The notes under the pieces were generated by a model, which made no database searches, had not been told where the DNA came from, and was given only the letters and a program-made list of their open reading frames with translations. Positions 2,242 to 13,864 of a DNA stretch of 13,864 bases are shown one piece after another. Origin of the DNA: Nitrososphaerota archaeon. Its GTDB lineage: Archaea; Thermoproteota; Nitrososphaeria; Nitrososphaerales; UBA57. Made by a program: the position numbers and the translations under genes. How positions within the stretch are numbered: the stretch's first letter is position 1; every line of letters starts with the position of its first letter. The stretch is from positions 1 through 13,864 of the forward strand of contig JACAFS010000027.1 of assembly GCA_013378385.1 (NCBI GenBank), given 5' to 3'.

Positions 2242-2978
2242 AACCAAAGATAACAATAATAATTCCATGTTATAACTCTGAAAAGTGGATAGAGCAATGC
2301 GCCACCAGTTGCCTAAAGCAAACTTATGAGAACGTGGAAGTAATAGCGGTAGACAACGAGAGTAAGGACAATACTGTCAAGATACTAAATGACATAAAGA
2401 AAGAGTATCCAGAACTAATACTGTCCAGTGCTGAAAATATATATCCAAACTGCTGGGATGAAGCGAGAGAAGAGGGCTTTCGCCTAATGACAGGAGACTA
2501 CGTTATGACGATAGGCTCTGATGATTATATCGACTTGGAGTATGTCGATAACTGTATGGAAATTATACTATCCGCTCCAGATAAAATAAAGGCACTCCAG
2601 ACGCCGATACAGGGCGTCCGACAATATGGAGACAAGTTCAGTTCTACTGGAACAATTCAACATTCATATAGTTCACGAGAGCAGTTTAAGGAACTGTGTT
2701 TAACGAAGTGTCCAGTCAATACACCTTCTGTTATCTATAATGCCGAACTCTATCACAATGGGTTATTAAATACAAAGCCAGAAAAGTATGGCGGCGCAGC
2801 AGACTATGATTTATACTGTAGTCTAATAGATAATGGTATTTTTATTTACCCTGTTCCCAAGTGGCTTGGTTTTTATTATCGATGGCACCCAGAACAAGCA
2901 ACTTGGAATGTCCACAAAGAAGAAAGAAACTACGACAGAGAAATACAGGAACATTGGAAGAAAAGATGGCAGATGTAA
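2238..2978 (+). CDS. Family 2 glycosyltransferase (GT-A fold), 246 aa
   Basis: Classic GT2 N-terminus 'KITIIIPCYNSEKWIEQCATSCLKQTYENVEVIAVDNESKDNT' and a DxD-like 'IGSDDYID'. Confidence 0.85.
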   Translation: MKPKITIIIPCYNSEKWIEQCATSCLKQTYENVEVIAVDNESKDNTVKILNDIKKEYPELILSSAENIYPNCWDEAREEGFRLMTGDYVMTIGSDDYIDLEYVDNCMEIILSAPDKIKALQTPIQGVRQYGDKFSSTGTIQHSYSSREQFKELCLTKCPVNTPSVIYNAELYHNGLLNTKPEKYGGAADYDLYCSLIDNGIFIYPVPKWLGFYYRWHPEQATWNVHKEERNYDREIQEHWKKRWQM

Positions 2979-3607
2979 ATTTACTGCATAGAATAATAGA
3001 CATTGCTTACAAGAACCGTTTGTCTCATCTTGGAAGCTATTTTTCCAGCGTTGATATTATCGACGATGTTTATAGCAAGATGAACAAAGAGGATATATTC
3101 ATTCTATCTTCAGGACACTGCGCTTTGGCTCTCTACGCTGTTGTAGAAAAATACAGAGGCATTGATGCTGAGTATTTATTTGCCACCCACGGAGGACACC
3201 CTCACCGCTGTGAAAATGACGGACTATATTGCTCCACTGGCAGCTTGGGGATGGGTATCACCGCCGCTGTCGGAAGAGCAATAGCTAAACCAGATAGGGT
3301 AGTTCATTGTCTTATCAGCGATGGAGAATGTGCCGAAGGTAGCGTCTGGGAAAGCCTGAAGTTCATCTACGAACACAATATAAAGAATATAAAGATTTAT
3401 GTAAATGTAAACGGATACGCTGCGTATGACGCAGTTGACACTTCCTATCTAATAAAAAGACTCAAAGCTTTCTTGCCAAGCATTAATATTATACATACAG
3501 ATGTCAATGCCTTTCCTTTCCTAAGAGGATTGAACGCCCATTATCACATAATGAAAGAGGAAGATTACAAATTGGCGAAGGAGGTTCTAAATGAGAAAAG
3601 AATTTAG
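2966..3607 (+). CDS. Transketolase-family ThDP enzyme, N-terminal (PP-domain) subunit, shortened to 213 aa
   Basis: 'RLSHLGSYFSSVDIIDDVY', 'ILSSGHCALALYAVVEKY' and 'HGGHPHR...CSTGSLGMGITAAVGRAIA' match the split-transketolase N subunit. So does the ThDP/Mg motif 'SDGECAEGSVWESLKFIYEHNIKNIKIYVNVNGY' (the GDG...N motif with G->S). I chose the ATG at 2966 (MADVNLLH) because a GGAAG lies upstream. The ORF-track start at 2861 would run 118 nt inside the GT2 gene. Confidence 0.8.
   Translation: MADVNLLHRIIDIAYKNRLSHLGSYFSSVDIIDDVYSKMNKEDIFILSSGHCALALYAVVEKYRGIDAEYLFATHGGHPHRCENDGLYCSTGSLGMGITAAVGRAIAKPDRVVHCLISDGECAEGSVWESLKFIYEHNIKNIKIYVNVNGYAAYDAVDTSYLIKRLKAFLPSINIIHTDVNAFPFLRGLNAHYHIMKEEDYKLAKEVLNEKRI
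3578..3584 (+). promoter_or_regulatory. Shine-Dalgarno site (AAGGAGG) for the transketolase C subunit
   Basis: A perfect AAGGAGG lies 6 nt upstream of ATG 3591, inside the 3' end of the upstream gene. Confidence 0.6.
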
Positions 3608-4067
3608 TGAAAGATTGCACAAAGAGATGGGAATAAATAAGGACATATATCTATTGACTGGCGATTTGGGATACGGACTCTGGGACAAAATTAGAATAGA
3701 TTATCCGAATCGTTTCTATAATGTAGGCTCTTCGGAACAATTGATGCTGGGAATGGCGTCTGGCTTGGCGATGGATGGAAAGATACCAGTTGTCTATTCC
3801 ATTACTCCCTTTTTACTTTACAGACCTTTCGAGACTATAAGAAATTACGTGGATCACGAGAAGCTACCAGTTAAACTGATTGGAGGAGGTAGGGATAGGG
3901 ACTATGGATACTTAGGATTTTCCCATTGGGCAGAAGAAGACAAGGAAGTTACAAAGGTGTTTAAGAATATTAAGACTATCCATCCAGAGAGTGTAGAGTC
4001 AATGAATAAGAATTTTGATTTTGTTATCGATAAGGAAACTCCTCTGTATATGAATTTGAAACGATGA
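3591..4067 (+). CDS. Transketolase-family ThDP enzyme, pyrimidine-binding (Pyr) subunit. At 158 aa it lacks the usual C-terminal domain.
   Basis: 'YLLTGDLGYG', 'YPNRFYNVGSSEQLMLGMASGLAMDGKIPVVYSITPFLLYRPFETIRNYV' and 'LPVKLIGGG' match the split-transketolase C subunit pattern (fPeRf.nvGIaEq.mvg.AaGlA..Gk.P). The ThDP-activating Glu is kept in 'SSEQ'. There is a strong SD upstream, and the gene overlaps the N subunit by 17 nt. Confidence 0.8.
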   Translation: MRKEFSERLHKEMGINKDIYLLTGDLGYGLWDKIRIDYPNRFYNVGSSEQLMLGMASGLAMDGKIPVVYSITPFLLYRPFETIRNYVDHEKLPVKLIGGGRDRDYGYLGFSHWAEEDKEVTKVFKNIKTIHPESVESMNKNFDFVIDKETPLYMNLKR

Positions 4068-4966
4068 GAATATTATTTACATCCAATAAAACATATCGTG
4101 GCTCAATAGACGGTGGTTGGTGGTATTTTTATTTACCGCTAATGGACATGGGACATGAGGTATATTTTTATGACACTGTTTCAGGGGATGATAAAACATA
4201 TTCAGAAATAATAGAGACGTTCAAACCAGATTTGATATTCTGCATCATGACTGGTGATGTAGGAATAGCTCCATTGGAGCCGTGGCAGGACATCTTGAAT
4301 GAGACTAAGACTGGCAGAACAAAAACATTCAACTGGTTCTGTGATGACACTTGGAGATATGATAATTTCTCCAAAAATGCGTGTCATTATTTTAATGTCT
4401 GCTCCACTCCTGAAAACCCAAGAGTTGCAGATTATAAGAAAGATGGATACGATAATATAATTGTTGCTAATTGGCACGCCAACTCAAAGTTTTATGAAGC
4501 AAAAGCATATGAAGATAAGAACACGGACATTTCTTTTATAGGCTATCTGACTGCAACGAGGAAATCGTTTTTCAACAGAGTTGACTTGCCAATCACTTTC
4601 CTAAGCGGAATAACTCAAGAAGAACTTTTTGCTGCCCATACTACGACTAAAATAGGCATAAACTTGTCCCACAACGACAATGACACTCAAGGCAAGACTC
4701 AAATGAAGCAGAGAATGTTCGAAGTTCCCGCTGGCGGAGGGATGCTATTGACTCAATATCACGAGGGAATCGAAGACTATTATAAAATTGACAGCGAGAT
4801 AGTTACTTTTAAAGATGCTGATGAGTTTTGCAAAAAGGCAAAGTTCCTAATGGACAATCCCAATGTCAGTAAAAATATAGCTGAGAGGGGATACAGAAGA
4901 TTTATTAGGGAACACGATTCGTCCGTTAGGTTGAACCAAGTATTGCAAGAGATTGGAAAACTGTGA
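4064..4966 (+). CDS. CgeB-like glycosyltransferase (Glyco_trans_1_2-type), 300 aa. It is the second member of this family in the window.
   Basis: 'ISFIGYLTATRKSFFNRV', 'GINLSHND...QRMFEVPAGGGMLLTQ' and 'IVTFKDADEFCKKAKFLMDNPNVSKNIAERGYRRFIREHDSSVRLNQVL' follow the CgeB C-terminal domain pattern. It starts with an ATGA overlap and ends with a GTGA overlap. Confidence 0.65.
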   Translation: MRILFTSNKTYRGSIDGGWWYFYLPLMDMGHEVYFYDTVSGDDKTYSEIIETFKPDLIFCIMTGDVGIAPLEPWQDILNETKTGRTKTFNWFCDDTWRYDNFSKNACHYFNVCSTPENPRVADYKKDGYDNIIVANWHANSKFYEAKAYEDKNTDISFIGYLTATRKSFFNRVDLPITFLSGITQEELFAAHTTTKIGINLSHNDNDTQGKTQMKQRMFEVPAGGGMLLTQYHEGIEDYYKIDSEIVTFKDADEFCKKAKFLMDNPNVSKNIAERGYRRFIREHDSSVRLNQVLQEIGKL

Positions 4967-5805
4967 ATATTCTCATTACAGGATCAAAAGGATTTATAGG
5001 CAAAGAATTGTCAAGATACTTTAGCGAAGAGCATAATGTAATCTCCACAGATAGGACAACTCTTGATCCAACTAAACGCGAAAGTGTAAAAAGCTTCTTC
5101 GACAATAACAAAATAGATGTTGTCATCCACGCCGCAGTGAAGGGCGGGAAAAGAGGGCATCAGGAAAGTATCGAAGACTTGTACGAAAATTTGCTTATGT
5201 TTGAAAACCTTAGTAATTTTTCAAATCACTATAAGGCTATGTTCAATTTTGGCTCTGGTGCAGAATTTGACAGAAGAATGGAAATAAAACTATCAATAGA
5301 AAGTGAAATAGAAAGTCGTCTTCCGTCGGACTACTATGGATTGGCTAAAAATCTTATAACTCGTAAAATAAATCACTTAGATTCCAATATCTATAATCTA
5401 AGGCTATTTGGATGCTTCGGAGAATATGAAGAACCTCAGAGACTACTAAGAGCAACATACGACAAGATAGTCAAAGGCGAAAGCCCTAATGTTCACAATG
5501 ATAAGTGGATGGACTACTTTTATGCACAGGATATCGGAAGAGTCATAGAGTATATTGTAAATAATATTGAGAAAGATATTCCCAAGGACATAAATCTGTG
5601 TTATAATGAGAAATACAGACTAAGCGACTTAGTTTATAAAATAAAAAACTTGACGGAATCCAATTGCGATGTTATAATATATAATAACCAAATTGGAAGT
5701 TTGTCTTATACGGGCGATTCTACAGAATTAGATAGCCTAAATATAGCCCTGATGGGCATTGACATTGGAGTTGAAAAGTGTCTGAAAAGTTGGAGCAAAT
5801 ACTAG
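4963..5805 (+). CDS. Extended-SDR NDP-sugar reductase or epimerase/reductase (RmlD / GDP-fucose-synthase-like), 280 aa, GTG start
   Basis: The Rossmann motif 'ILITGSKGFIGKEL' begins at residue 3. 'DRTTLDPTKRESVKSFFDNNKIDVVIHAAVKGG' resembles the RmlD/Fcl pattern 'r..lD..d...v.......pd.VihaAa.vgg'. The catalytic YxxxK is present in 'DYYGLAKN'. Confidence 0.75.
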   Translation: MNILITGSKGFIGKELSRYFSEEHNVISTDRTTLDPTKRESVKSFFDNNKIDVVIHAAVKGGKRGHQESIEDLYENLLMFENLSNFSNHYKAMFNFGSGAEFDRRMEIKLSIESEIESRLPSDYYGLAKNLITRKINHLDSNIYNLRLFGCFGEYEEPQRLLRATYDKIVKGESPNVHNDKWMDYFYAQDIGRVIEYIVNNIEKDIPKDINLCYNEKYRLSDLVYKIKNLTESNCDVIIYNNQIGSLSYTGDSTELDSLNIALMGIDIGVEKCLKSWSKY

Positions 5806-7106
5806 ACTTAGTATCTGAGTATGTTAGTGAAAAGGATGATGGATGGAAAGCTGGCGAAGATTGGGTTAGTTATTCTGGACCTCAATTTGATGATAAAGAG
5901 TACAGGGCAGCAATTGAAGTCCTACTGAGCGGCTGGTTAATCTTTGGAGAGAAGTCTAGAGAATTTGAAAAGACATTTTCGCCGCACTTAGGCAAAGCAC
6001 AGGGGTGCCTAACCAATTCGGGCTCTTCCGCCAATCTTCTTGCCGTAAGCGCTCTGCGCTCAAAGAATGGATTTAATCTCCCAGAAGGTTCAAAGATAAT
6101 TACGCCAGTTGTGTGTTTTCCTACGACAATAAATCCAATCATTCAAAATGGATTTGAACCAGTTTTCGTAGATGTGACTCTTCCTGATTTAAATTTAGAC
6201 TTAGATCAAGTAGAGGCTATACTTGAATCTGATCCAGATATCAGGGGGATAATGTTTGCTCATGTTCTTGGAAACCCTCCAGACATGGACAGATTGATGG
6301 GGTTGATTAAAAAACACGAACTCATCTTTGTTGAAGACGCTTGTGACGCTCTCGGTTCATTTTATGATGGCAGAAAGTTGGGCTCATTCGGAGATATTTC
6401 CACTTGCTCGTTCTTTCCAGCCCATCACATGACTATGGGCGAGGGTGGATTTGTAGCAACAGATAACGTTCGACTAAACAAGGCAGTTACGAGCATTAGA
6501 GACTGGGGTAGGGCTTGCTATTGTAACACTGCTAAACCTGGTAATGTAACTGGCGGGACAGCTTGTGGAAACAGGTTCAAGAATTGGTTGACTGGAATGC
6601 CAGAAGCCGTTTACGATCATCGATATGTTTTTGACGAGATAGGGTACAACCTAAAGCCACTAGATTTACAAGCAGCCATGGGGTTGAAGCAATTAGATAA
6701 ATTGCCAGATTTCGACGCCGCACGACGAAAAAACTTCTCAAGGCTGTACGAGATATTCAAACCATATGAGAAATATCTATACCTACCAGAAGCCAACGAA
6801 AAGGCAGATCCATGTTGGTTCGCCTTCCTAATGACGGTTAAAGAAGGTTCCCCGTTTAACAGAGGAAATATCGTTTCTCATTTCGAGAAAAACAAGATTC
6901 AAACTCGTTCTTATTTCGCTGGAAATATTTTAGCTCACCCTGGTTACAATCACTTAGCAGAGCCGTATGGTGACTTGGGAGATATGTTCCCAGTTGCCAA
7001 GATAGTCACGTTCAATTCATTCTTTTTAGGAACTTTCATAGGACTGACTGAAGAAAAATTAGATTACATACAAAGCGTTGCTGACTCCTTTTTCGGAGAA
7101 CTGTGA
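5778..7106 (+). CDS. rfbH: NDP-4-keto-6-deoxyhexose 3-dehydrase, RfbH/DdhC (E1) type. PMP-dependent, with a putative [2Fe-2S] site; 442 aa, GTG start.
   Basis: It is collinear with my recollection of RfbH/E1 along its whole length (LDLVSEY..., SGWLIFGEKSREFEKTF, NSGSSANLLAVSAL, CFPTTINPIIQNGFEPVFVDV, VEDACDALG, SFFPAHHMTMGEGG, IRDWGRACYC, YDHRY.F..IGYNLKP.DLQAA, LP.A.EKADPCWF.F, QTR..FAGN). His216 sits where aminotransferases have the Schiff-base Lys. The Cys pattern is C189-X57-C247-X1-C249-X13-C263. GGAG at 5767-5770 lies 7 nt before the GTG. Confidence 0.85.
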   Translation: MSEKLEQILDLVSEYVSEKDDGWKAGEDWVSYSGPQFDDKEYRAAIEVLLSGWLIFGEKSREFEKTFSPHLGKAQGCLTNSGSSANLLAVSALRSKNGFNLPEGSKIITPVVCFPTTINPIIQNGFEPVFVDVTLPDLNLDLDQVEAILESDPDIRGIMFAHVLGNPPDMDRLMGLIKKHELIFVEDACDALGSFYDGRKLGSFGDISTCSFFPAHHMTMGEGGFVATDNVRLNKAVTSIRDWGRACYCNTAKPGNVTGGTACGNRFKNWLTGMPEAVYDHRYVFDEIGYNLKPLDLQAAMGLKQLDKLPDFDAARRKNFSRLYEIFKPYEKYLYLPEANEKADPCWFAFLMTVKEGSPFNRGNIVSHFEKNKIQTRSYFAGNILAHPGYNHLAEPYGDLGDMFPVAKIVTFNSFFLGTFIGLTEEKLDYIQSVADSFFGEL

Positions 7107-8053
7107 TGAAAGTGGTATATGTAACGGGATGTCTTGGATTCATAGGCTCATACGTTACTAGGAAGTGTCTCGAACGTGGTTGGATGGTGTATGGCATCGA
7201 TAAATGTACCTACGCCGCCAACAGGAATCTCATAGAAGAGTTTTCGGAATACTCAAACTTCACCTTCTTAGAAGAAGATATCAAAGACTTGAAGCATCTT
7301 TATGACTGCGACTACGTTATAAACACCGCTGCCGAGTCTCATGTTGGAAATAGTATCATAGATAGCGGGGAATTCATCAGTAGTAATATTGTGGGAGTTA
7401 GAAATCTTCTGGACTTGATTCGCAACAGACCAGAGAACTGCAACCGACGCCCCATCCTATTCCACTTCAGCACCGATGAGGTTTATGGCGACATTGAGGA
7501 CGGAGAGCATACTGAGGAACACTTGCTCCACCCAAGCAATCCATACTCTGCGTCTAAAGCGTCCGCAGACATGCTCGTTTTGGCATGGGCGAGAACATAT
7601 AACGTAGAGTACATTATTTTACGCCCCACAAACAATTATGGCATTGGACAATATCCAGAAAAACTCATCCCTCTCTCGGTAAAGAACATGATTAGAGGAA
7701 GGAAGGTTAGATTACACAATGGCGGTACGCCTATTCGTAACTGGCTTCACGCCGATGATACGGCAGAATCAGTAATGACAATCATCGATTCTGGCAATGT
7801 TAATGAGATATACAATGTTGCAGGAGGATTCGAACAAACGAATGCAGAGACAGTCAAAAAGATAGTGTCCGTTCATCACAACACTGATGATTGGAAACAA
7901 TATGTAGATTTCTCATATTCCAGACAAGGGCAAGATGTACGTTACGCCCTAAATGACGAAAAGTTGAGAGCCCTCGGCTGGAGCCCTAAAAAGGTTTTTG
8001 ATGAAGAGATAAAATCAATCGTTGAATACTACAAGAACAATTTTATTTGGTAA
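7106..8053 (+). CDS. rfbB: NDP-glucose 4,6-dehydratase, dTDP-glucose 4,6-dehydratase (RmlB/RfbB) type
   Basis: 'VYVTGCLGFIGSYV', 'INTAAESHV', 'FHFSTDEVYGD', 'PYSASKASADMLV', 'RPTNNYGIGQYPEKLIPL' and 'GGTPIRNWLHADDTAESV' match the RmlB signature blocks (STDEVYG, YSASKA, NNYGP.Q.PEKLIP, G.G...R.WL.V.DH). GGAGA at 7095-7099 favours ATG 7106 (TGATG junction). GTG 7103 is an alternative start. Confidence 0.88.
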   Translation: MKVVYVTGCLGFIGSYVTRKCLERGWMVYGIDKCTYAANRNLIEEFSEYSNFTFLEEDIKDLKHLYDCDYVINTAAESHVGNSIIDSGEFISSNIVGVRNLLDLIRNRPENCNRRPILFHFSTDEVYGDIEDGEHTEEHLLHPSNPYSASKASADMLVLAWARTYNVEYIILRPTNNYGIGQYPEKLIPLSVKNMIRGRKVRLHNGGTPIRNWLHADDTAESVMTIIDSGNVNEIYNVAGGFEQTNAETVKKIVSVHHNTDDWKQYVDFSYSRQGQDVRYALNDEKLRALGWSPKKVFDEEIKSIVEYYKNNFIW

Positions 8054-8925
8054 TGCTTATGTGGTACAAAGGTTTAAAAAGAAAAATAATAGACATTCCT
8101 TTATCGGTAGACTCTCCTCCTTGGCTTTCATCAACCCCATTACCAGAGAATCAATTGGCAGATCTTGGAAGAAGAGGAGATTTTGTTAATAAGTTTGAAG
8201 ATTATCAAATAGATAATAATCTTTCAGAATTGGTTAGCGGCAAGAGAATAGCCTATGTGTGTCCGTCTCCTCACTTGAGAGGGATGAAAATGGGCGAATA
8301 CATTGATTCGTTTGATTTAGTAGTTCGTGTTAACCAAGCTTTCCATATGCAAGAAGAGGATTGGGAAGATTATGGAAAAAGAACAGATATTTTAATGAAT
8401 TGCCTGAATTGTAATAAAATTGCAGCACTTGAAAAAGATATGGATTTCGCAAGAGACATGAAGTTTATTGTTTGTCCTATGGTTTCTATGTGGGATATAC
8501 AGAGAGTAGATGACTTTCTTGATAAAATCGGCGTACCTTGGCATAATGTAAGCGATGGATATCTATTTAAGATATTCAAAGAAGTGGGAACAACTTGTAA
8601 TACTGGACTGACTGGCGTTATGACGCTTCTGAACTATGACATAAAAGAGCTATATCTAACTGGAATGACTTTCTTCAATATGAACAAGTTTGGGCAAATA
8701 TATTATGGCAAATACCATAATGAAGCAGTCGCTAATAATAATTTTAGAGAAGATTCTGGAAAAGTTCCTAACTTTGCTGATTTGAGAATCGACATACACC
8801 AGCAACAGCCACAGATTAATTATTTCCACAAGATGGTGTATTTCCACTATGGAAAGAAGTTGACTTTAGATGAATATCTTACTAAAAACTTTGACTCCAC
8901 TATACAGAAGGTTAAAAATAAATGA
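8053..8925 (+). CDS. Sialyltransferase-like transferase with GT29-type sialyl-motif L/S/III-like blocks. The likely donor is a CMP-activated ulosonic acid.
   Basis: 'KRIAYVCPSPHLRGMKMGEYIDSFDLVVRVNQAF....EDYGKRTDIL' parallels sialyl motif L (C.vVGN...L.....G..ID..D.V.R.N.AP......DVG.KTT). 'CNTGLTGVMTLLNYDIKELYLTGM' parallels motif S (PSTG......A...CD.V.vYGF). 'IYYGKYH' parallels motif III (HYY[DE]). I chose ATG 8053 (TAATG junction). TTG 8047 and ATG 8059 are alternatives. That it is a CDS is secure; the function is a motif-level guess. Confidence 0.5.
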   Translation: MLMWYKGLKRKIIDIPLSVDSPPWLSSTPLPENQLADLGRRGDFVNKFEDYQIDNNLSELVSGKRIAYVCPSPHLRGMKMGEYIDSFDLVVRVNQAFHMQEEDWEDYGKRTDILMNCLNCNKIAALEKDMDFARDMKFIVCPMVSMWDIQRVDDFLDKIGVPWHNVSDGYLFKIFKEVGTTCNTGLTGVMTLLNYDIKELYLTGMTFFNMNKFGQIYYGKYHNEAVANNNFREDSGKVPNFADLRIDIHQQQPQINYFHKMVYFHYGKKLTLDEYLTKNFDSTIQKVKNK

Positions 8926-10046
8926 AACTTGTAGCAATGATACCTGCTCGACTGGGCAGCAAAAGAATACCCAAGAAAAACATAAGACTGCTCAATGGCA
9001 TTCCTCTTATTTCTTACATTATTCGTGCCGTAAAAGAAAGCCAATGTTTTGATGAGATATATGTAAACACAGAGTCAGATATAATCGGAGAGATAGCCTT
9101 GTCCGAGGGTGTCAAGTTTTACAAAAGACCGTCTCACTTATCAACAGACTCCGCAACAAACGATGATTTTTCTTTAGACTTTATAAAGAATGTTGAGTGC
9201 GACGTCATGGTACAGGTTCTAGCCACTTCTCCTTTTCTATCTGTAAAAGATATCAAATCTTTTGCAAAGATGGCTATTGACGGAGATTACGACACTTTAG
9301 TTTCTCTGAACAAGCAACAGATTGAATGCGTCTACGACGGCAATCCTATCAATTTTGATAAGAAGAAGCCTTCGCCACCGTCACAGCACGTAACGCCAGT
9401 CGGAGCATATGCCTGTGGTTTGATGGCTTGGAGAAGCGAGAATTACAAAGACAATATGGAGAAGTATGGCTGCGGATATCACGGAGGCGACGGTAAAGTG
9501 GGATATTATACCCTAACTGGGCACTCTACTATTGACGTTGACGAGGAAGAAGACTTCCAGTTGGCAGAATTAGTCGCAAGACACTTGGCGTCCAGACAGA
9601 ATTATGAACCAAGGTATTACGGAGACGGACTGCATGTAGAAGTTGACGTGCCGAGTATATTAGCCAAGGATGGAGTAAACACTAATGATTTACATTCAGC
9701 GAATAGTGAAACCCCAGTAAGTGTGAAAGAGATTATAAGCAGTTTTGACGACTCAGTTTCTTGGAGCAAGAGAGTAGTTAATACTGAGAATAACAGCGCC
9801 ACATTGATACATCAGATGCCAGGAGAAGGCAATCGAGCGCACTATCATCCAGAATGGAATGAGTGGTGGTACATCATTGACGGACAATGGGAATGGAACA
9901 TCGAGGGCGAAAAAATAATAGTTAAAAAAGATGATATAGTTTTTATACCAAAAAATAGAGTACATCACATTACCGCTGTCGGAGACAAGCCTGCCATAAG
10001 GCTGGCGGTTAGCCGAGAAGATGTAGAACATGTGTATCCCGAGTAA
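8922..10046 (+). CDS. Fusion protein: an N-terminal acylneuraminate/ulosonate cytidylyltransferase domain (NeuA/CTP_transf_3 type, about 8922-9590) and a C-terminal cupin domain (about 9705-10043)
   Basis: The N-terminus 'KLVAMIPARLGSKRIPKKNIRLLNGIPLISYIIRAVKES.CFDEIYVNTESD', 'KRPSHLSTDSAT' and 'HSTIDVDEEEDFQLAELV' form the NeuA-family signature. The C-terminus has two-motif cupin signatures 'GEGNRAHYHPEWNEWWYIIDG' and 'DDIVFIPKNRVHHI'. It starts with an ATGA overlap. Confidence 0.8.
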   Translation: MKLVAMIPARLGSKRIPKKNIRLLNGIPLISYIIRAVKESQCFDEIYVNTESDIIGEIALSEGVKFYKRPSHLSTDSATNDDFSLDFIKNVECDVMVQVLATSPFLSVKDIKSFAKMAIDGDYDTLVSLNKQQIECVYDGNPINFDKKKPSPPSQHVTPVGAYACGLMAWRSENYKDNMEKYGCGYHGGDGKVGYYTLTGHSTIDVDEEEDFQLAELVARHLASRQNYEPRYYGDGLHVEVDVPSILAKDGVNTNDLHSANSETPVSVKEIISSFDDSVSWSKRVVNTENNSATLIHQMPGEGNRAHYHPEWNEWWYIIDGQWEWNIEGEKIIVKKDDIVFIPKNRVHHITAVGDKPAIRLAVSREDVEHVYPE

Positions 10047-10052
10047 AATAAA

Positions 10053-10934
10053 ATGAATAAATCTGAAATTAATGAAATATCTATGGAAGATACAATATTT
10101 TTAATAGGTTCTGGACCTTCTTTAAATAAAATAGACATGTCCTTGTTGAAAGATGTAAATACAATGTCACTGAATAGACAGTATATTGCTTATGAAGAGT
10201 GGGGATTTTTTCCAACATATTACACCATTATAGATAGAAAACTTGTAAAAGCAATATTCATGAAGGACTTGTGTCCGCTCCTAATAGAAAATCCAAAATG
10301 TACAATAGAGAAGTATTTTGTACTCCAACCACCTTTAGACGCCGCTGATGTGCCTCGCGATATGTTAGCGATGTCTTATTCAAGAAACAAATCAAATAAG
10401 TCCTTCGACATCACAGAAGAATTTATTCAAGGTGATGACGGTCCACTCTGGTATTCTCACGAAGATGTTTTGATAATGCCTGAAAGAGCGGGCTGCGATG
10501 TGCGAATATCAGATTATAATATTGAAAAACTAATTTCAAATCCGAAGATGTGTTCGACTCTAGAAAATTTCTCAGCCTCGACTCTCGATTTTTGTGGTAA
10601 CGGGGGAGCCTTTGCGACAACTCTTTGTGCCCATTTAGGCTTTAAAAGAGTGGTTCTTTTGGGAATCGATGCTTTTTATTCTGGTCGTGATTGTTCAGTA
10701 AAAGCGGGCATTGACTTGGAACATTTTCATCCTCAATATTTTGATCCAGAAACATTCCCAGAAGGCGAGACTCAAGGAAGTCCAGATAAATCCAATGGAA
10801 TACTGCCGTGGAAAAAACTATCTGAGATGCAACCAGATGTTTCTTATCAAATATTATCTTGCACGCCTGATTCTATTATAAACGATTATTTGGATTATGT
10901 GAATCTTGAGGATTTGTTGGGGAGTTATGCTTGA
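10053..10934 (+). CDS. Second sialyltransferase-like protein (CstII/GT42-like, or DUF115/Maf-like fold), 293 aa
   Basis: 'IFLIGSGPSLNKIDMSLLKDVNTMSLNRQY' resembles the CstII N-terminus as I recall it (VIIAGNGPSLKEIDYSRLPNDFDVFRCNQFY). 'GNGGAFATTLCAHLGFKRVVLLGIDAFY' resembles CstII 'ITSGVYMCAVAIALGYKEIYLSGIDFYQ'. 'YQILSCTPDSIINDYLDYV' resembles 'IKLYCLCPNSLLANFIELA'. An alternative ATG lies at 10083. Confidence 0.5.
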   Translation: MNKSEINEISMEDTIFLIGSGPSLNKIDMSLLKDVNTMSLNRQYIAYEEWGFFPTYYTIIDRKLVKAIFMKDLCPLLIENPKCTIEKYFVLQPPLDAADVPRDMLAMSYSRNKSNKSFDITEEFIQGDDGPLWYSHEDVLIMPERAGCDVRISDYNIEKLISNPKMCSTLENFSASTLDFCGNGGAFATTLCAHLGFKRVVLLGIDAFYSGRDCSVKAGIDLEHFHPQYFDPETFPEGETQGSPDKSNGILPWKKLSEMQPDVSYQILSCTPDSIINDYLDYVNLEDLLGSYA

Positions 10935-11614
10935 ATCTTGATTTCAAAAATAAGACAGTTTTAGTCACTGGAGCCACCAGAGGTATCGGAAAATGCATTT
11001 CTGATGATTTCAAGGCATTGGGAGCAGATGTCATATCTTTTCCAAGTTCGATTTATGATCTCACAGACAGAAAAGAACTGCATGATTTTATAGAACATAT
11101 AGAGACTCTTCAGGTAGATATTTGTATAAACAACGCAGGTATAAATAAAATTAATTATGTAGAAGATGTTCTCGAAGAGGATTACGACAAAATAATGCAC
11201 ATCAACGCCAAAGCGCCATTCATGATATCTCAGGCAGTGTCTAAGGCAATGAAGGCGAGAGAATACGGTAGAATAGTCAATATAGCATCCATATTTGGAC
11301 ATTGTACTAAAGAAAAAAGATCTTGTTATACAACTTCTAAATTTGCACTCGTCGGGATGACAAAGACTCTCGCAGTCGAAATGGCTCCTTATAACGTCCT
11401 CGTCAATTCTGTGTCACCTGGATTCACCGCAACTGAACTGACAACAAGGGTTTTAGGAACAGAGGGAATTGCTGAGATGTGCAAACAAGTTCCAATGAAG
11501 AGAATGGCGATGCCAGATGAGATATCAAAAGTAGTTTTATTTCTATCCAGCGAACACAACACGTATCTTACTGGACAAAATATAATTGTTGACGGAGGCT
11601 TCGTAAATGTTTAG
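10931..11614 (+). CDS. Classical short-chain dehydrogenase/reductase (FabG / PtmA-like), 227 aa, TTG start
   Basis: 'TVLVTGATRGIGKCI' (TGxxxGxG), 'NNAGI', the Ser...YxxxK set in 'NIASIFG...YTTSKFALVGM', and 'SVSPGF'. GGGGAG at 10919-10924 lies 6 nt before TTG 10931, and no in-frame ATG precedes the Rossmann motif. Confidence 0.85.
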   Translation: MNLDFKNKTVLVTGATRGIGKCISDDFKALGADVISFPSSIYDLTDRKELHDFIEHIETLQVDICINNAGINKINYVEDVLEEDYDKIMHINAKAPFMISQAVSKAMKAREYGRIVNIASIFGHCTKEKRSCYTTSKFALVGMTKTLAVEMAPYNVLVNSVSPGFTATELTTRVLGTEGIAEMCKQVPMKRMAMPDEISKVVLFLSSEHNTYLTGQNIIVDGGFVNV

Positions 11615-12683
11615 CGTCGATTCGCACAAGGGAAAATACCACGTCGTGTTCGGCACGCCTTTGGAAGAAGCTGTCAAGAGTTGTATTCAGGATACTGATT
11701 TTTTAGTAATAGACAAATGCGTATATGATAAGTATCCCATTTTCCACCGCCTAATTGATTCCGAAAGGATTTACATTCTTAGGGCGGGAGAAGAGACTAA
11801 GACTTTGCAAACATGTCAAGAGCTTATATCTATTTTGATATCCAGCGGATTCAAGCGAAATCACAAACTTGTAGCAGTTGGGGGAGGAATTACGCAAGAC
11901 ATAACGTCTTTTACGGCGTCTGTTCTTTTCCGAGGCATTGGGTGGAAGTTCTTTCCAACCACCTTGTTAGCGCAAGCAGACAGTTGTATCGGCAGCAAAA
12001 CATCAATCAATTTCTCAAACACTAAGAATCTATTAGGATCTTTCCACCCACCAGAGCAAATTATATGTTGCACCGAGTTCTTAAAAACACTTCCTCGCAA
12101 TGATATTAAATCTGGAATCGGCGAGATGCTGCATTATTATATTTATGCCGACAGCAGTCTTCTAGAGGACATGACGAGAGAATATAATAAACTTGTAGAA
12201 AATCCGTGCGAACTGATGGGGCGATACATCGAAGAGAGTTTGTCTATAAAAAGAGAGATGATACAGCGAGATGAGTTTGACAAAGGAGAACGAAGGGTTT
12301 TTAATTATGGGCATACGTTTGGACACGCTATCGAGGCTTTGAGTAACTACGAGGTAAGCCACGGACTGGCTGTCACTATAGGAATGGACATTGCCAACTA
12401 TGTTGCCTTAAAAAACAACATCATTGATGAAGAAACCTATCTCTATTTTCATAAGCACTTAAAGAATAACTTGACGCCATACTACATAGATAATGACAGA
12501 ATTGAGGATTATTACAATCTGTTAATGAAAGATAAAAAGAATACAGATAGTGATATTGTCTGCATCTTGCCGTATGGTATAAAAGATTTAAGAATAACTA
12601 AAGTTAGCGATAGTAACACAGATATATCAATTGATAAACTTAAGAGAGACTTGGTGGACTATATGGAGGATAAATGTCTTTAG
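11607..12683 (+). CDS. 3-dehydroquinate synthase-family enzyme (sugar-phosphate cyclase superfamily), 358 aa
   Basis: 'GEETKTLQTC...R..KLVAVGGGITQDITSFTASVLFRGIGWKFFPTTLLAQADSCIGSKTSINFSNTKNLLGSFHPP', 'SGIGEMLHY', 'IKREMIQRDEFDKGERRVFNYGHTFGHAIE' and 'SHGLAVTIGM' track the DHQS blocks (GGG..gD..GF.A....RGi....PTTLLaqvDSS.GGKt.iN....KN..G.F..P; LN.GHT.gHAiE; HGeAV.iGm). GGAGG at 11594-11598 lies 8 nt upstream of the ATG. Confidence 0.8.
   Translation: MFSVDSHKGKYHVVFGTPLEEAVKSCIQDTDFLVIDKCVYDKYPIFHRLIDSERIYILRAGEETKTLQTCQELISILISSGFKRNHKLVAVGGGITQDITSFTASVLFRGIGWKFFPTTLLAQADSCIGSKTSINFSNTKNLLGSFHPPEQIICCTEFLKTLPRNDIKSGIGEMLHYYIYADSSLLEDMTREYNKLVENPCELMGRYIEESLSIKREMIQRDEFDKGERRVFNYGHTFGHAIEALSNYEVSHGLAVTIGMDIANYVALKNNIIDEETYLYFHKHLKNNLTPYYIDNDRIEDYYNLLMKDKKNTDSDIVCILPYGIKDLRITKVSDSNTDISIDKLKRDLVDYMEDKCL
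12665..12670 (+). promoter_or_regulatory. Shine-Dalgarno-like GGAGGA for the class III aminotransferase gene
   Basis: GGAGGA ends 3 nt before ATG 12674, inside the end of the DHQS-like gene. The spacing is short but usable. Confidence 0.4.
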
Positions 12684-13852
12684 CAAGAAGCACTAAATTT
12701 GGAATCAATGTGGATTTTGAAAAGAGTCATGGACTGTATTTATATGATAAGAATGCCCATAGGGAACTTCTTGACTTCTTCGGAATGTATGCTTCGTTGC
12801 CGTTGGGTTATAATCATCCGATATTCAAAACCCCTGAATTCGTTGATGAGTATTTGAGAGCATCTTCTTTAAAAATAAATAACTGTGAATTTGTATCAGA
12901 TGAAACTCTTGAATTTGATAGAATGTTTACTGAATATGCGGGCGTCGGTATTTTTAAAAACATTCATTATAGTTGCACTGGAGCCCTCGCAGTAGAGGCG
13001 GCTATAAAAACATGCATTCAATACAAGGGCTTTCACGAACCGAAAATACTATCTTTCCATAATAGTTTCCATGGAATTAACAGTTACGGAGGATTTATAA
13101 CCTCAAGGTTTCCAGGTGTAGACAAGAGATTAAACGGATTTCCCGAGAATTTCTCTATGAAGATAGCTCCAGATTTACAAAAGGTTGAAGAGAGTTTAAG
13201 GAATAATGACATTACGTGCCTCTTAGTCGAACCGATACAGTGCAGTGCTGGCGACATTCATTATGATAAGATGTTTTTTAAGGAATTGAGAAGGTTGTGC
13301 GATAAATACGATGTACCTCTTGTGTTTGATGAGATACAGATTGGATTTGGAGGAACAGGAAAGCTATGGTTCTTTCAACATATCGATGTGACGCCAGATA
13401 TTGTCATTTTTGGAAAGAAAACTCAACTTTCTGGCATCATGGTAAAGGATGAATTTTCACAGATATTCTCACGAGAAAGCAGCGTAAGGCTTGAGGTAAC
13501 TTGGGACGGCGACATTTCCGACATGATAAGATGCAAATATGTGATCAAAGCTTATAATGAATACGACATATTAAGCAATGTAAATACAATGTCTAATCTA
13601 CTGTCGTCAAAACTATCAGAAATGCCAGAAATACTAAACTTGAGAAATTGTGGATTAATCTTCGGATTTGATTTGAAAAATAGCGAGTTTAGAGATATAA
13701 TGATAGGTGAACTATATGACAATGGGCTGATTTGCAACAAGACTGGCTCTAATTCAATTAGACTAAGACCAAGTTTAAATTTGACTGAGAGAAATATAGA
13801 ACAAGCAGTCGCGATATTTGAGAAGTCATTCGCAAAGAGGAAAGAAATATAA
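12674..13852 (+). CDS. Class III PLP aminotransferase, L-lysine 6-aminotransferase (LAT)-like, 392 aa
   Basis: 'DFEKSHGLYLYDKNAHRELLDFFGMYASLPLGYNHP', 'GALAVEAAIK', 'FHGINSYG', 'EPIQCSAGD', 'LVFDEIQIGFGGTGKLWFFQH', 'VTPDIVIFGKKTQLSGIM' and 'TWDGDISDM' parallel the mycobacterial LAT sequence as I recall it (...DIVAFGKKTQVCG..., STWGGNLTDM). The presumed PLP lysine lies in FGKK (13415-13420). Confidence 0.8.
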   Translation: MSLARSTKFGINVDFEKSHGLYLYDKNAHRELLDFFGMYASLPLGYNHPIFKTPEFVDEYLRASSLKINNCEFVSDETLEFDRMFTEYAGVGIFKNIHYSCTGALAVEAAIKTCIQYKGFHEPKILSFHNSFHGINSYGGFITSRFPGVDKRLNGFPENFSMKIAPDLQKVEESLRNNDITCLLVEPIQCSAGDIHYDKMFFKELRRLCDKYDVPLVFDEIQIGFGGTGKLWFFQHIDVTPDIVIFGKKTQLSGIMVKDEFSQIFSRESSVRLEVTWDGDISDMIRCKYVIKAYNEYDILSNVNTMSNLLSSKLSEMPEILNLRNCGLIFGFDLKNSEFRDIMIGELYDNGLICNKTGSNSIRLRPSLNLTERNIEQAVAIFEKSFAKRKEI

Positions 13853-13864
13853 TGAGTAAGGAAA
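13852..13864 (+). CDS. Start of a further co-directional gene (MSKE...), 3'-truncated by the window edge
   Basis: ATG 13852 shares its A with the preceding TAA (TAATG junction), the same coupling style used elsewhere in the window, and GAGGA lies upstream. Only 4 codons are visible. Confidence 0.35.

Follow-up and report, generated by a model that had tools for sequence, protein, structure and literature searches.

Introduction

In 3-dehydroquinate synthase (DHQS, the aroB product), oxidation at C5 by NAD+ and a metal is followed by expulsion of phosphate in an E1cB (conjugate-base) elimination. The related sugar phosphate cyclases, the synthases of 2-deoxy-scyllo-inosose (DOIS), 2-epi-5-epi-valiolone (EEVS), desmethyl-4-deoxygadusol (DDGS) and 2-epi-valiolone (EVS), and aminoDHQS, share its two Pfam domains. 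Acidic sugars activated with cytidine monophosphate (CMP) come from other routes, such as the pathway to 3-deoxy-D-manno-octulosonic acid (Kdo; KdsD-KdsA-KdsC-KdsB-WaaA) and the animal sialic acid pathway (NANS-NANP-CMAS-GT29). Here we examine the window, a 13,864-base stretch that is the whole of contig JACAFS010000027.1 and to which all coordinates refer. It carries a DHQS-like gene between genes for a short-chain dehydrogenase/reductase (SDR) and a class III aminotransferase, within a glycan island that also encodes a CMP-sugar synthetase. Our tentative reading, at a little under an even chance, is that a phage pathway to a CMP-activated acidic sugar, laid out like the Kdo and sialic acid pathways, has in this trio one variant of its dephosphorylating and tailoring section.

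Other described systems resemble the trio in part. The synthesis of 2-deoxystreptamine (BtrC/BtrS/BtrN, NeoC/NeoS/NeoE) also joins a cyclase-family enzyme to an aminotransferase and a dehydrogenase, but the protein studied here has DHQS-type residues, its aminotransferase partner is of class III and not DegT, its gene is linked to a CMP-transferase and the context is not of the aminoglycoside type. KdnB, from the KdnB/KdnA route to 8-amino-Kdo (Kdo8N), is an oxidase of free Kdo, an iron-alcohol-dehydrogenase-type member of the DHQS fold superfamily that is paired with an aminotransferase and lacks the DHQS phosphate site. In contrast, the window encodes a DHQS-type enzyme with the full phosphate site, and its aminotransferase is of class III whereas KdnA is of the DegT type. 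NDP-hexose 4,6-dehydratases working with a 4-ketoreductase or 4-aminotransferase (RmlB-RmlD, with AcbV as a class III example) are analogous in function only. Transient oxidation by NAD+, beta-elimination and reduction or transamination of a keto sugar are common to both, but the protein families differ, and phosphate would be expelled here in place of water.

A coupled gene trio

The SDR gene (10931-11614) encodes 227 amino acids from a TTG start (Pfam adh_short_C2, 1.6e-46; adh_short, 6e-43), the DHQS-like gene (11607-12683) 358 amino acids (DHQ_synthase, 2.8e-36; DHQS_C, 1.4e-33) and the aminotransferase gene (12674-13852) 392 amino acids (Aminotran_3, 4.5e-59, residues 12-384), all on the + strand. 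The first two genes overlap by 8 nucleotides, ATGTTTAG, and the last two by 10, ATGTCTTTAG. The SDR start shares four nucleotides (TTGA) with the stop of the gene upstream, and ribosome-binding sites of the GGAGG type lie 5-9 nucleotides 5' of the starts. The first-pass annotation of this DNA had described three coupled genes of these families with these overlaps, and the open reading frames (ORFs), junctions and Pfam matches bear it out. All long ORFs of the window are on the + strand, most abut or overlap, and the G+C content is about 38%.

A further gene starts on the + strand at a TAATG junction (13852-13864, MSKE...) and is cut by the contig end, so the operon runs past it. In L092, a syntenic locus that is 80% identical, the aminotransferase gene is followed by a second MptE-like gene (MSKKK...) and then by SIS-like, fcl-like and gmd genes. 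The downstream 'epimerases' were rejected as members of the module, being gmd, which passes its cutoff, and the fcl-like gene, that is, a separate GDP-fucose module. Dozens of independent contigs show the same arrangement of SDR, DHQS-like and aminotransferase genes, at 45-85% identity, which is more than chance.

Family and active site of the DHQS-like protein

The DHQS-like protein scores above the cutoff of the NCBIfam model TIGR04425 (406.4 bits against 400, residues 4-338), 'AroB-related putative sugar phosphate phospholyase (cyclizing)'. This family is so far recognized only as a hypothetical equivalog, and homologues in Leptospira are annotated with its name. The protein falls short of the housekeeping aroB equivalog TIGR01357, with 267.8 bits where the cutoff is 305, and shares about 33% identity with AroB-like homologues. 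By these sequence comparisons it is distinct from housekeeping AroB, as the first-pass idea requires. Unlike aroB, window-type genes are coupled to an SDR gene and lie in glycan islands with a CMP-transferase, not with shikimate genes. A neighbour-joining tree, for which rooting on the AroB-like set is unreliable, was used only for group identities and for the near-monophyly of the clade defined below by His176. No family for the protein was present among the PHROGs, and a literature search returned no account of TIGR04425, of TIGR04326, of DHQS-like genes belonging to O-antigen or phage glycan clusters, or of genes for carbocyclic lipopolysaccharide sugars.

As in AroB, the active site is complete. 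Residues R109, D125, K131, N141, E173 and K215 align with R130, D146, K152, N162, E194 and K250 of the Aspergillus nidulans enzyme, and R229, N233, H236, H240, H252 and K310-K311 with R264, N268, H271, H275, H287 and K355-356; all the active-site residues listed in the first-pass annotation were correct by alignment. Among them are the three metal ligands (E173, H236 and H252 for E194, H271 and H287) and the phosphate ligands (R109, K131, N141, N233, H240 and K310/311 for R130, K152, N162, N268, H275 and K356). The NAD motif GGGxxxD is present as 'GGGITQD'. The metal, phosphate and K250/R264-type (putative carboxylate) residues are invariant across about 160 aligned homologues. Judged by alignment, the enzyme has all that DHQS needs for NAD+-dependent oxidation beside a CH2-O-phosphate group and for elimination of the phosphate. 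We propose that it would be NAD+- and metal-dependent and would expel the phosphate of a heptulosonate 7-phosphate resembling 3-deoxy-D-arabino-heptulosonate 7-phosphate (DAHP).

The AlphaFold2 (AF2) model of the protein (mean predicted local distance difference test score, pLDDT, 90.6) gave Foldseek template modelling (TM) scores of 0.83-0.86 to bacterial DHQS, 0.78-0.80 to DOIS and 0.79 to the EEVS ValA. Sequence similarity to PDB entries falls in the order DHQS (162 bits), DOIS (129), ValA (90) and DDGS (73). In DOIS (BtrC), Glu243 replaces Asn268 of DHQS. This feature is absent here, as Asn233 is conserved and an offset of about 10 residues to BtrC places it opposite Glu243.

EEVS has Leu267/Asp281(/His360) and DDGS Glu254/Ala268(/Thr347) at key active-site positions (PMC10666671). 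Both pairs are spaced by 14 residues, like K250 and R264, and alignment offsets (offset mapping only, to ValA 267/281) put Lys215 and Arg229 opposite them, which is not the fingerprint of cyclases of sedoheptulose 7-phosphate (SH7P). Retention of the K250/R264-equivalent pair, in place of the apparent Leu/Asp of EEVS and Glu/Ala of DDGS, had been put forward earlier as fitting a carboxylate substrate, and it makes a carboxylate-bearing, DAHP-like ulosonate phosphate, rather than SH7P, our best guess. A cyclase of the EEVS, DDGS or EVS kind, fed with SH7P by transketolase and leading to a C7 aminocyclitol, would suit the split mini-transketolase of the window (2861-4067) and the GmhA-like SIS protein of related loci. 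We consider it very improbable given K215/R229 and the ranking of PDB matches; moreover, about half of the islands lack the transketolase, which goes along with an RfbH/RmlB-like block.

His176 ('GEMLH') occupies the position of DHQS Lys197 and is confined to one clade, here called the His clade. The Lys-to-His change noticed in the first-pass annotation is thus real, but it does not define the pathway, as a sister clade with Lys (Lys-Val) at this position has the same CMP/SIS gene context; His176 was rejected as a pathway specificity switch. Cys127 and Trp113 mark every SDR-coupled clade, whereas AroB-like homologues, which lack the SDR, have Ser and Phe/Tyr.

The SDR and the aminotransferase

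The SDR has the cofactor motif TGATRGIG (TGxxxGxG) and the catalytic motif YTTSK (YxxxK) of a classical SDR and reached no specific NCBIfam model. The SDR/DHQS-like pair of Leptospira has the identical 8-nucleotide overlap. A 113-amino-acid ORF on the - strand inside the SDR gene (10961-11302), with a low-complexity, Tyr/Ile-rich translation, is most likely spurious.

Class III motifs can be read in the aminotransferase ('DEIQIGFGGTG', 'FGKK' and 'IRLRPSL'), and its closest solved structure is the lysine aminotransferase (LAT) of Mycobacterium tuberculosis (175 bits). It fails the L-lysine 6-transaminase model TIGR03251 (LAT_fam) with 250.3 bits against a cutoff of 520.8. By sequence it is an omega-type class III enzyme dependent on pyridoxal phosphate (PLP), LAT-like, as the first-pass annotation has it, and not a lysine aminotransferase.

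The DHQS-like gene travels with a CMP-transferase

To place the trio in context we sampled 88, later more than 170, loci and scanned their ORFs by phmmer with the window proteins and their neighbours as queries. In the His clade the SDR gene is directly upstream of the DHQS-like gene in 54 of 55 loci. Within 6 kb of the DHQS-like gene, a CMP-transferase gene was found in 46 of 48 His-clade loci and an SIS-like gene in 45 of 48. The CMP-transferase is also linked in most loci of the Lys/Val clade, while AroB-like homologues have none of the SDR, CMP-transferase, SIS-like or class III aminotransferase partners. The order can be shuffled to CMP-transferase, aminotransferase, SIS-like, SDR and DHQS-like (L101, L104, L121, L133-138), and the set is still together. 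A class III aminotransferase gene lies within 6 kb in 24 of 31 viral His-clade loci versus none of eight from bacterial genomes. These neighbourhoods, from phages and bacteria alike, strongly support a tie between the DHQS-like gene and CMP activation.

The bacterial loci come from Leptospira (including pathogenic species), Sulfuritalea, Undibacterium, SAR116, SAR86, SAR11, Bacteroidota, Patescibacteria and others. They combine the SDR and DHQS-like genes with genes for a GmhA-like SIS protein, a GFO-family dehydrogenase, a 2-hydroxyacid dehydrogenase resembling PGDH/PdxB and a CMP-transferase, and many add methyltransferases, a TIGR04326 protein, and a pair of Aminotran_1_2 and a second GFO protein. 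An HpcH/HpaI pyruvate aldolase gene adjoins the CMP-transferase gene in 10 loci. In 10 bacterial loci (for example L089, 11178-13049, and L001, 12083-13963), the genes for the DHQS-like protein and the 2-hydroxyacid dehydrogenase are followed by that for the TIGR04326 protein ('O_ant_LIC13510', surface carbohydrate biosynthesis; about 625 amino acids). This protein matched no Pfam domain and no PDB sequence and may be the transferase for the product in bacteria.

In the SIS-like protein of the phages (L004, 5367-5951; L092, 13047-13631; and relatives), the phosphate-binding motifs GNGG and SxSGxS are retained. The SIS protein is of a more bacterial type in those phage islands (L005, L106, L189) that have GFO and 2-hydroxyacid dehydrogenase genes as well.

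No synthase of the NeuB/KdsA type, dependent on phosphoenolpyruvate (PEP), was found in the window or among the conserved genes of 75 CMP-type loci, and NeuB is confined to the 'type II' context described at the end. The substrate of the CMP-transferase must therefore come from the module or from the host.

The gene content also bears on an aminoshikimate route like that to 3-amino-5-hydroxybenzoate (AHBA), or on a phage auxiliary aroB that boosts the host shikimate pathway. In rifamycin synthesis the AHBA genes likewise bring together a DHQS homologue and a split transketolase, the pairing on which the first-pass annotation drew, with an isomerase and an aminotransferase. No aminoDAHP synthase, (amino)DHQ dehydratase, AHBA synthase or other shikimate gene was found among the recurrent families of type I and type II loci, nor were AHBA/shikimate genes found in the window or in representative loci read by Pfam. 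With the failed aroB model and a position in glycan islands beside the SDR and CMP-transferase genes, this makes a role in aromatic metabolism the least probable of the readings we weighed, and the aminoshikimate suggestion poorly supported. A homologous gene has been read in that way: in the prasinovirus OlV1, a '3-dehydroquinate synthase' was assigned to aromatic amino-acid metabolism and an 'enoyl-ACP reductase' to that of fatty acids (PMC6851583). This is probably the same SDR and DHQS-like pair in a glycan context, and the names a likely misannotation.

The CMP-transferase and the neighbouring glycosyltransferases

The CMP-transferase of the window is a NeuA-like CMP-sugar synthetase fused to a cupin domain (8922-10046, + strand; CTP_transf_3, 2.8e-25; Cupin_2, 1.3e-15). 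Its best PDB match is mouse CMP-Neu5Ac synthetase (CMAS). The cupin domain is of the metal-binding type (HxH...E...H motifs) and may act as a ketoisomerase, epimerase or oxidase; in L003, L103 and L105 the CMP-transferase and cupin are separate ORFs (L003, 8258-9341). Phage CMP-transferases are NeuA-like, and at least one bacterial locus (L089) has a KdsB-like enzyme that passes the KdsB subfamily cutoffs. The use of these two lineages points to a substrate of the 2-ulosonic acid type.

Immediately upstream lies a GT29-like gene (8047-8925, + strand), above the Pfam cutoff for Glyco_transf_29 (24.9 bits against 23). The protein had no PDB match at the sequence level. The 30 best PDB matches to its AF2 model (pLDDT 93.4) are without exception GT29 sialyltransferases (E 4e-7, at modest TM scores of 0.45-0.5). 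The 118 homologues found are all from marine metagenomes, and one relative is fused to a CMP-transferase. The gene at 10053-10934 (+ strand) encodes an MptE-like/DUF115-type putative CMP-sugar-dependent transferase, with 27.1 bits against the MptE-like cutoff of 34.6 and a match to the PHROG 'alpha-2,3-sialyltransferase' (4.7e-7); its homologues occupy variable positions in related islands. Of the two sialyltransferase-like genes named in the first-pass annotation, the first therefore stands and the second is weak. The window thus encodes both a CMP-sugar synthetase (CTP_transf_3) and a GT29-fold, CMP-dependent transferase, the combination seen in the Neu, Leg, Pse and Kdo pathways. The link to CMP-ulosonate activation suggested from the gene next door has gained from this and from the neighbourhoods.

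A phosphatase-like protein in the same slot

A second IMG/VR search started from the GT29-like gene instead of the DHQS-like gene. It returned syntenic islands (L173/L195 and L184) without the SDR and DHQS-like genes, in which a protein of 126-128 amino acids is encoded between the CMP-transferase/cupin and aminotransferase genes. Read by eye, it has the four motifs of haloacid dehalogenase (HAD) phosphatases in order (DFDGV, S/T, K, DD). In L213, L217, L229 and L238 the SIS-like protein bears this 128-amino-acid domain as a C-terminal fusion, and there the fusion adjoins an HpcH-like aldolase, a CMP-transferase and a GT29-like gene. By analogy, this set of isomerase, aldolase, phosphatase, CMP-transferase and transferase reads as the Kdo pathway layout. 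A suspected HpcH fusion in L218 was not confirmed.

The de-duplicated CMP-transferase loci divide into 70 with only the DHQS-like gene, seven with only the 128-amino-acid domain, none with both and 10 with neither (for example L202), counts that are biased because most loci were retrieved through the DHQS-like gene and only seven are phosphatase-like. This complementary distribution and the replacement in the same slot suggest that the SDR and DHQS-like proteins displace the phosphatase step. GT29-like genes that are 48-61% identical serve both kinds of island. The aminotransferase and SIS-like genes occur independently of the DHQS-like gene. The aminotransferase does not, therefore, simply act on the cyclase product.

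Two branches within one island might also account for GT29-like and CMP-transferase sets that lack a DHQS-like gene (L171, L202, L213-217) and for the persistence of the aminotransferase and SIS-like genes without it. The SIS-like protein, host KdsA and KdsC, the CMP-transferase and the GT29-like protein would make and transfer CMP-Kdo or a comparable ulosonic acid of host type; KpsF/KpsU of capsule loci, an SIS isomerase and a CMP-Kdo synthetase, are a precedent. The SDR and DHQS-like proteins, perhaps with the aminotransferase, would make a carbocyclic acid used as an aglycone or amide substituent. We find this scheme decidedly unlikely. It is less parsimonious and does not account for the CMP-transferase linkage described above, which spans phages, many bacterial phyla and two CMP-transferase lineages. 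In bacteria, moreover, the SDR and DHQS-like genes are interleaved with those for SIS, GFO and 2-hydroxyacid dehydrogenase proteins, and the conserved genes of the loci compared include no ligase that would attach a free carbocyclic acid.

A proposed pathway and its alternatives

In the pathway that we propose for a CMP-activated acidic sugar, the SIS-like isomerase would supply an aldose phosphate, which a host PEP-aldolase, or in some relatives an HpcH-type pyruvate aldolase, would turn into a 2-ulosonate omega-phosphate. The DHQS-like enzyme would act on a DAHP-type heptulosonate 7-phosphate, oxidizing C5 with NAD+ and metal and losing the C7 phosphate by E1cB elimination. The coupled SDR would then reduce the remaining keto group and the class III aminotransferase would add an amino group. 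Finally, the NeuA-like CMP-transferase/cupin would activate the acid at C2, and the GT29-like and MptE-like enzymes would pass it to the glycan. We infer the substrate, the order of the steps and the non-cyclized outcome. In bacteria, the SIS, GFO and 2-hydroxyacid dehydrogenase proteins could provide the substrate by converting SH7P to hept-2-ulosonate 7-phosphate, for which the Epd/PdxB steps of PLP biosynthesis are a precedent.

Elimination of phosphate would here play the role of a 4,6-dehydratase, the type of enzyme that serves for hexoses, and the product would resemble legionaminic or pseudaminic acid, which are 9-deoxy sugars. A 7-deoxy ulosonic acid is favoured by partners with the sialyltransferase fold, by the use of two CMP-transferase lineages and by the phosphatase swap. 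We put forward a 7-deoxy (amino) heptulosonic acid as the likeliest product, with a confidence that stops somewhat below the halfway mark.

Like the Kdo and animal sialic acid pathways, the module has an isomerase, an aldolase (of the HpcH type in relatives), a dephosphorylation step, CMP activation and a sialyltransferase-fold transferase; as in the sialic acid pathway, the transferase has the GT29 fold and the phage CMP-transferase is closest to CMAS. Unlike them, it has no PEP-dependent synthase of its own, its isomerase is GmhA-like and not KdsD-like, the DHQS-like protein and SDR take the phosphatase step, and an omega-type aminotransferase and a cupin domain are added.

Several points weigh against this pathway. 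The active site is indistinguishable from that of DHQS, which makes cyclization the default, and the enol-pyranose formed by DHQS reportedly cyclizes spontaneously (Bartlett, Knowles). A non-cyclized product needs the hydride to return to C7 and not C5, for which we know of no precedent in the superfamily. The alternatives, 3-dehydroquinate and 5-keto-3,7-dideoxy-heptulosonate, are isomers, each equal to the substrate less H3PO4. The aminotransferase found without a DHQS-like gene leaves its substrate carbonyl unexplained. The phage SIS-like protein appears to have Asp and Tyr at the positions of the GmhA catalytic residues Glu65 and His180 (Escherichia coli reference), so its predicted activity is uncertain. 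The HAD identity of the 128-amino-acid protein rests on motifs read by eye, since Pfam, PDB and hhalign searches gave nothing significant, and the locus counts carry the bias described above. There are also hints of a cyclitol. In the viral locus L117 (8197-12431), genes for a CMP-transferase, a DegT aminotransferase, a DHQS-like protein, a radical S-adenosylmethionine (SAM)/SPASM protein and an SIS-like protein occur without an SDR gene, and the sole significant PDB match of the radical SAM/SPASM protein is BtrN (E 4e-10), as in the 2-deoxystreptamine triad. Bacterial loci, for their part, encode IolG-like GFO dehydrogenases.

A rival reading is a carbocyclic product, one of the outcomes listed in the first-pass annotation. 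By DHQS chemistry on DAHP or aminoDAHP, followed by reduction of the ketone by the SDR, transamination or both, the trio would form an aminoquinate-type 'carba-ulosonic acid' or an aminocyclitol carboxylate. This compound would either receive CMP at its tertiary C1-OH or serve as an acceptor; the scheme follows the cyclase, aminotransferase and dehydrogenase logic of 2-deoxystreptamine. Besides the DHQS fold, the complete catalytic set and the spontaneous cyclization, the arrangement in L117 and the IolG-like GFO dehydrogenase/aminotransferase pairs and methyltransferases of bacterial loci are consistent with it. The 3-dehydroquinate skeleton, a gamma-keto acid, would also suit a class III aminotransferase of the GABA/LAT type. 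However, sialyltransferase-fold enzymes need a donor able to form an oxocarbenium-like transition state, which a saturated ring cannot do, yet the GT29-like genes are shared with the phosphatase-like islands. The swap in the same slot suggests an equivalent class of product, and the BtrN-like gene, found in L117 only, was rejected as a general partner. We regard a carbocycle as possible, with somewhat less confidence than the 7-deoxy acid; the phosphatase swap and the sialyltransferase-like partners tip the balance, if at all, towards a genuine ulosonic acid.

The full form of this alternative, in which the phage makes an amino-carbocyclic 'carba-ulosonic acid' from a cyclized DAHP-type acid, activates it with CMP and installs it on a glycan, we rate as quite unlikely. 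If true, the product would be a natural glycosidase-resistant carbasugar mimic of sialic acid or Kdo, and its attachment would call for a sialyltransferase-fold enzyme capable of pseudo-glycosyl transfer at a tertiary carbon.

Both outcomes would be novel: a DHQS-family, phosphate-eliminating equivalent of a dehydratase leading to the 7-deoxy heptulosonic acid of our proposal, or a carbocyclic sugar mimic in a surface glycan. A new class of sugar is realistic whichever chemistry holds. The module is widespread, in marine T4-like phages and in many bacterial phyla that include pathogenic Leptospira, SAR11, SAR86 and SAR116. In the ocean, a glycan modification encoded by phages could bear on the recognition of hosts, on superinfection exclusion or on the glycosylation of virions.

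Phage origin of the island

Relatives of the DHQS-like gene were found on at least 111 IMG/VR viral contigs, only part of which show the CMP-type module. At 5-8 kb downstream, L092 has genes for a T4 late sigma factor and for a baseplate hub, and in L003, L103 and L105 the island lies between gp32 and UvsX. Several of the viral contigs bearing the DHQS-like gene are 150-166 kb long and belong to T4-like marine phages. Given the T4 genes beside syntenic islands and these large phage contigs, the window is phage-derived and, most likely, a piece of the genome of an uncultured T4-like marine myovirus. That the whole island is, by synteny, phage-borne goes beyond the first-pass annotation. Searches of isolated phage genomes (50,697 GenBank records) by blastn and tblastn gave no DHQS-like homologue above the AroB level and no CMP-transferase/cupin, and plasmids gave matches to the DHQS-like gene at the AroB level only.

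Other genes of the window and related loci

Upstream of the genes discussed above, the window encodes glycosyltransferases (10-369, 1339-2241, 2238-2978 and 4064-4966), a split mini-transketolase (2861-4067; about 214 and 158 amino acids, with the C-terminal domain absent), an RmlD-like reductase (4963-5805), RfbH (5778-7106, above its NCBIfam cutoff) and an RmlB-like dehydratase (7103-8053), all on the + strand. By analogy, the transketolase and the RmlD-like, RfbH and RmlB-like genes (2861-4067 and 4963-8053), found together in many phage islands, appear to make up a module of their own, apart from the trio, for a branched-chain or dideoxy-hexose of the yersiniose kind. As the split transketolase is found in only about half of the islands, along with the RfbH/RmlB-like/RmlD-like block, it was rejected as a core partner. 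The listed GTG start of its N-terminal subunit overlaps the preceding gene by 118 nucleotides (2861-2978). The true start is probably the ATG near 2963 (MADVNLL...), judging from homologues of 203-216 amino acids.

In some relatives, and not in the window, one or two B12-binding radical SAM genes lie between the RmlB-like and GT29-like genes (L006, 5355-7073; L090, 3474-7204).

In the type II context (L040-L078, L114-L170; for example L040, 7444-11041), an acetolactate-synthase-type thiamine diphosphate enzyme of about 580 amino acids forms a triad with the SDR and DHQS-like proteins in 65 of 70 loci. These loci, from bacteria, phages and giant-virus metagenome-assembled genomes, are a larger class than the CMP-type. 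Near the triads there is no CMP-transferase, and genes for an FGGY kinase, a HAD phosphatase, an HMGL-like aldolase, NeuB, an NTP_transferase, an RmlB-like protein and DegT are found.

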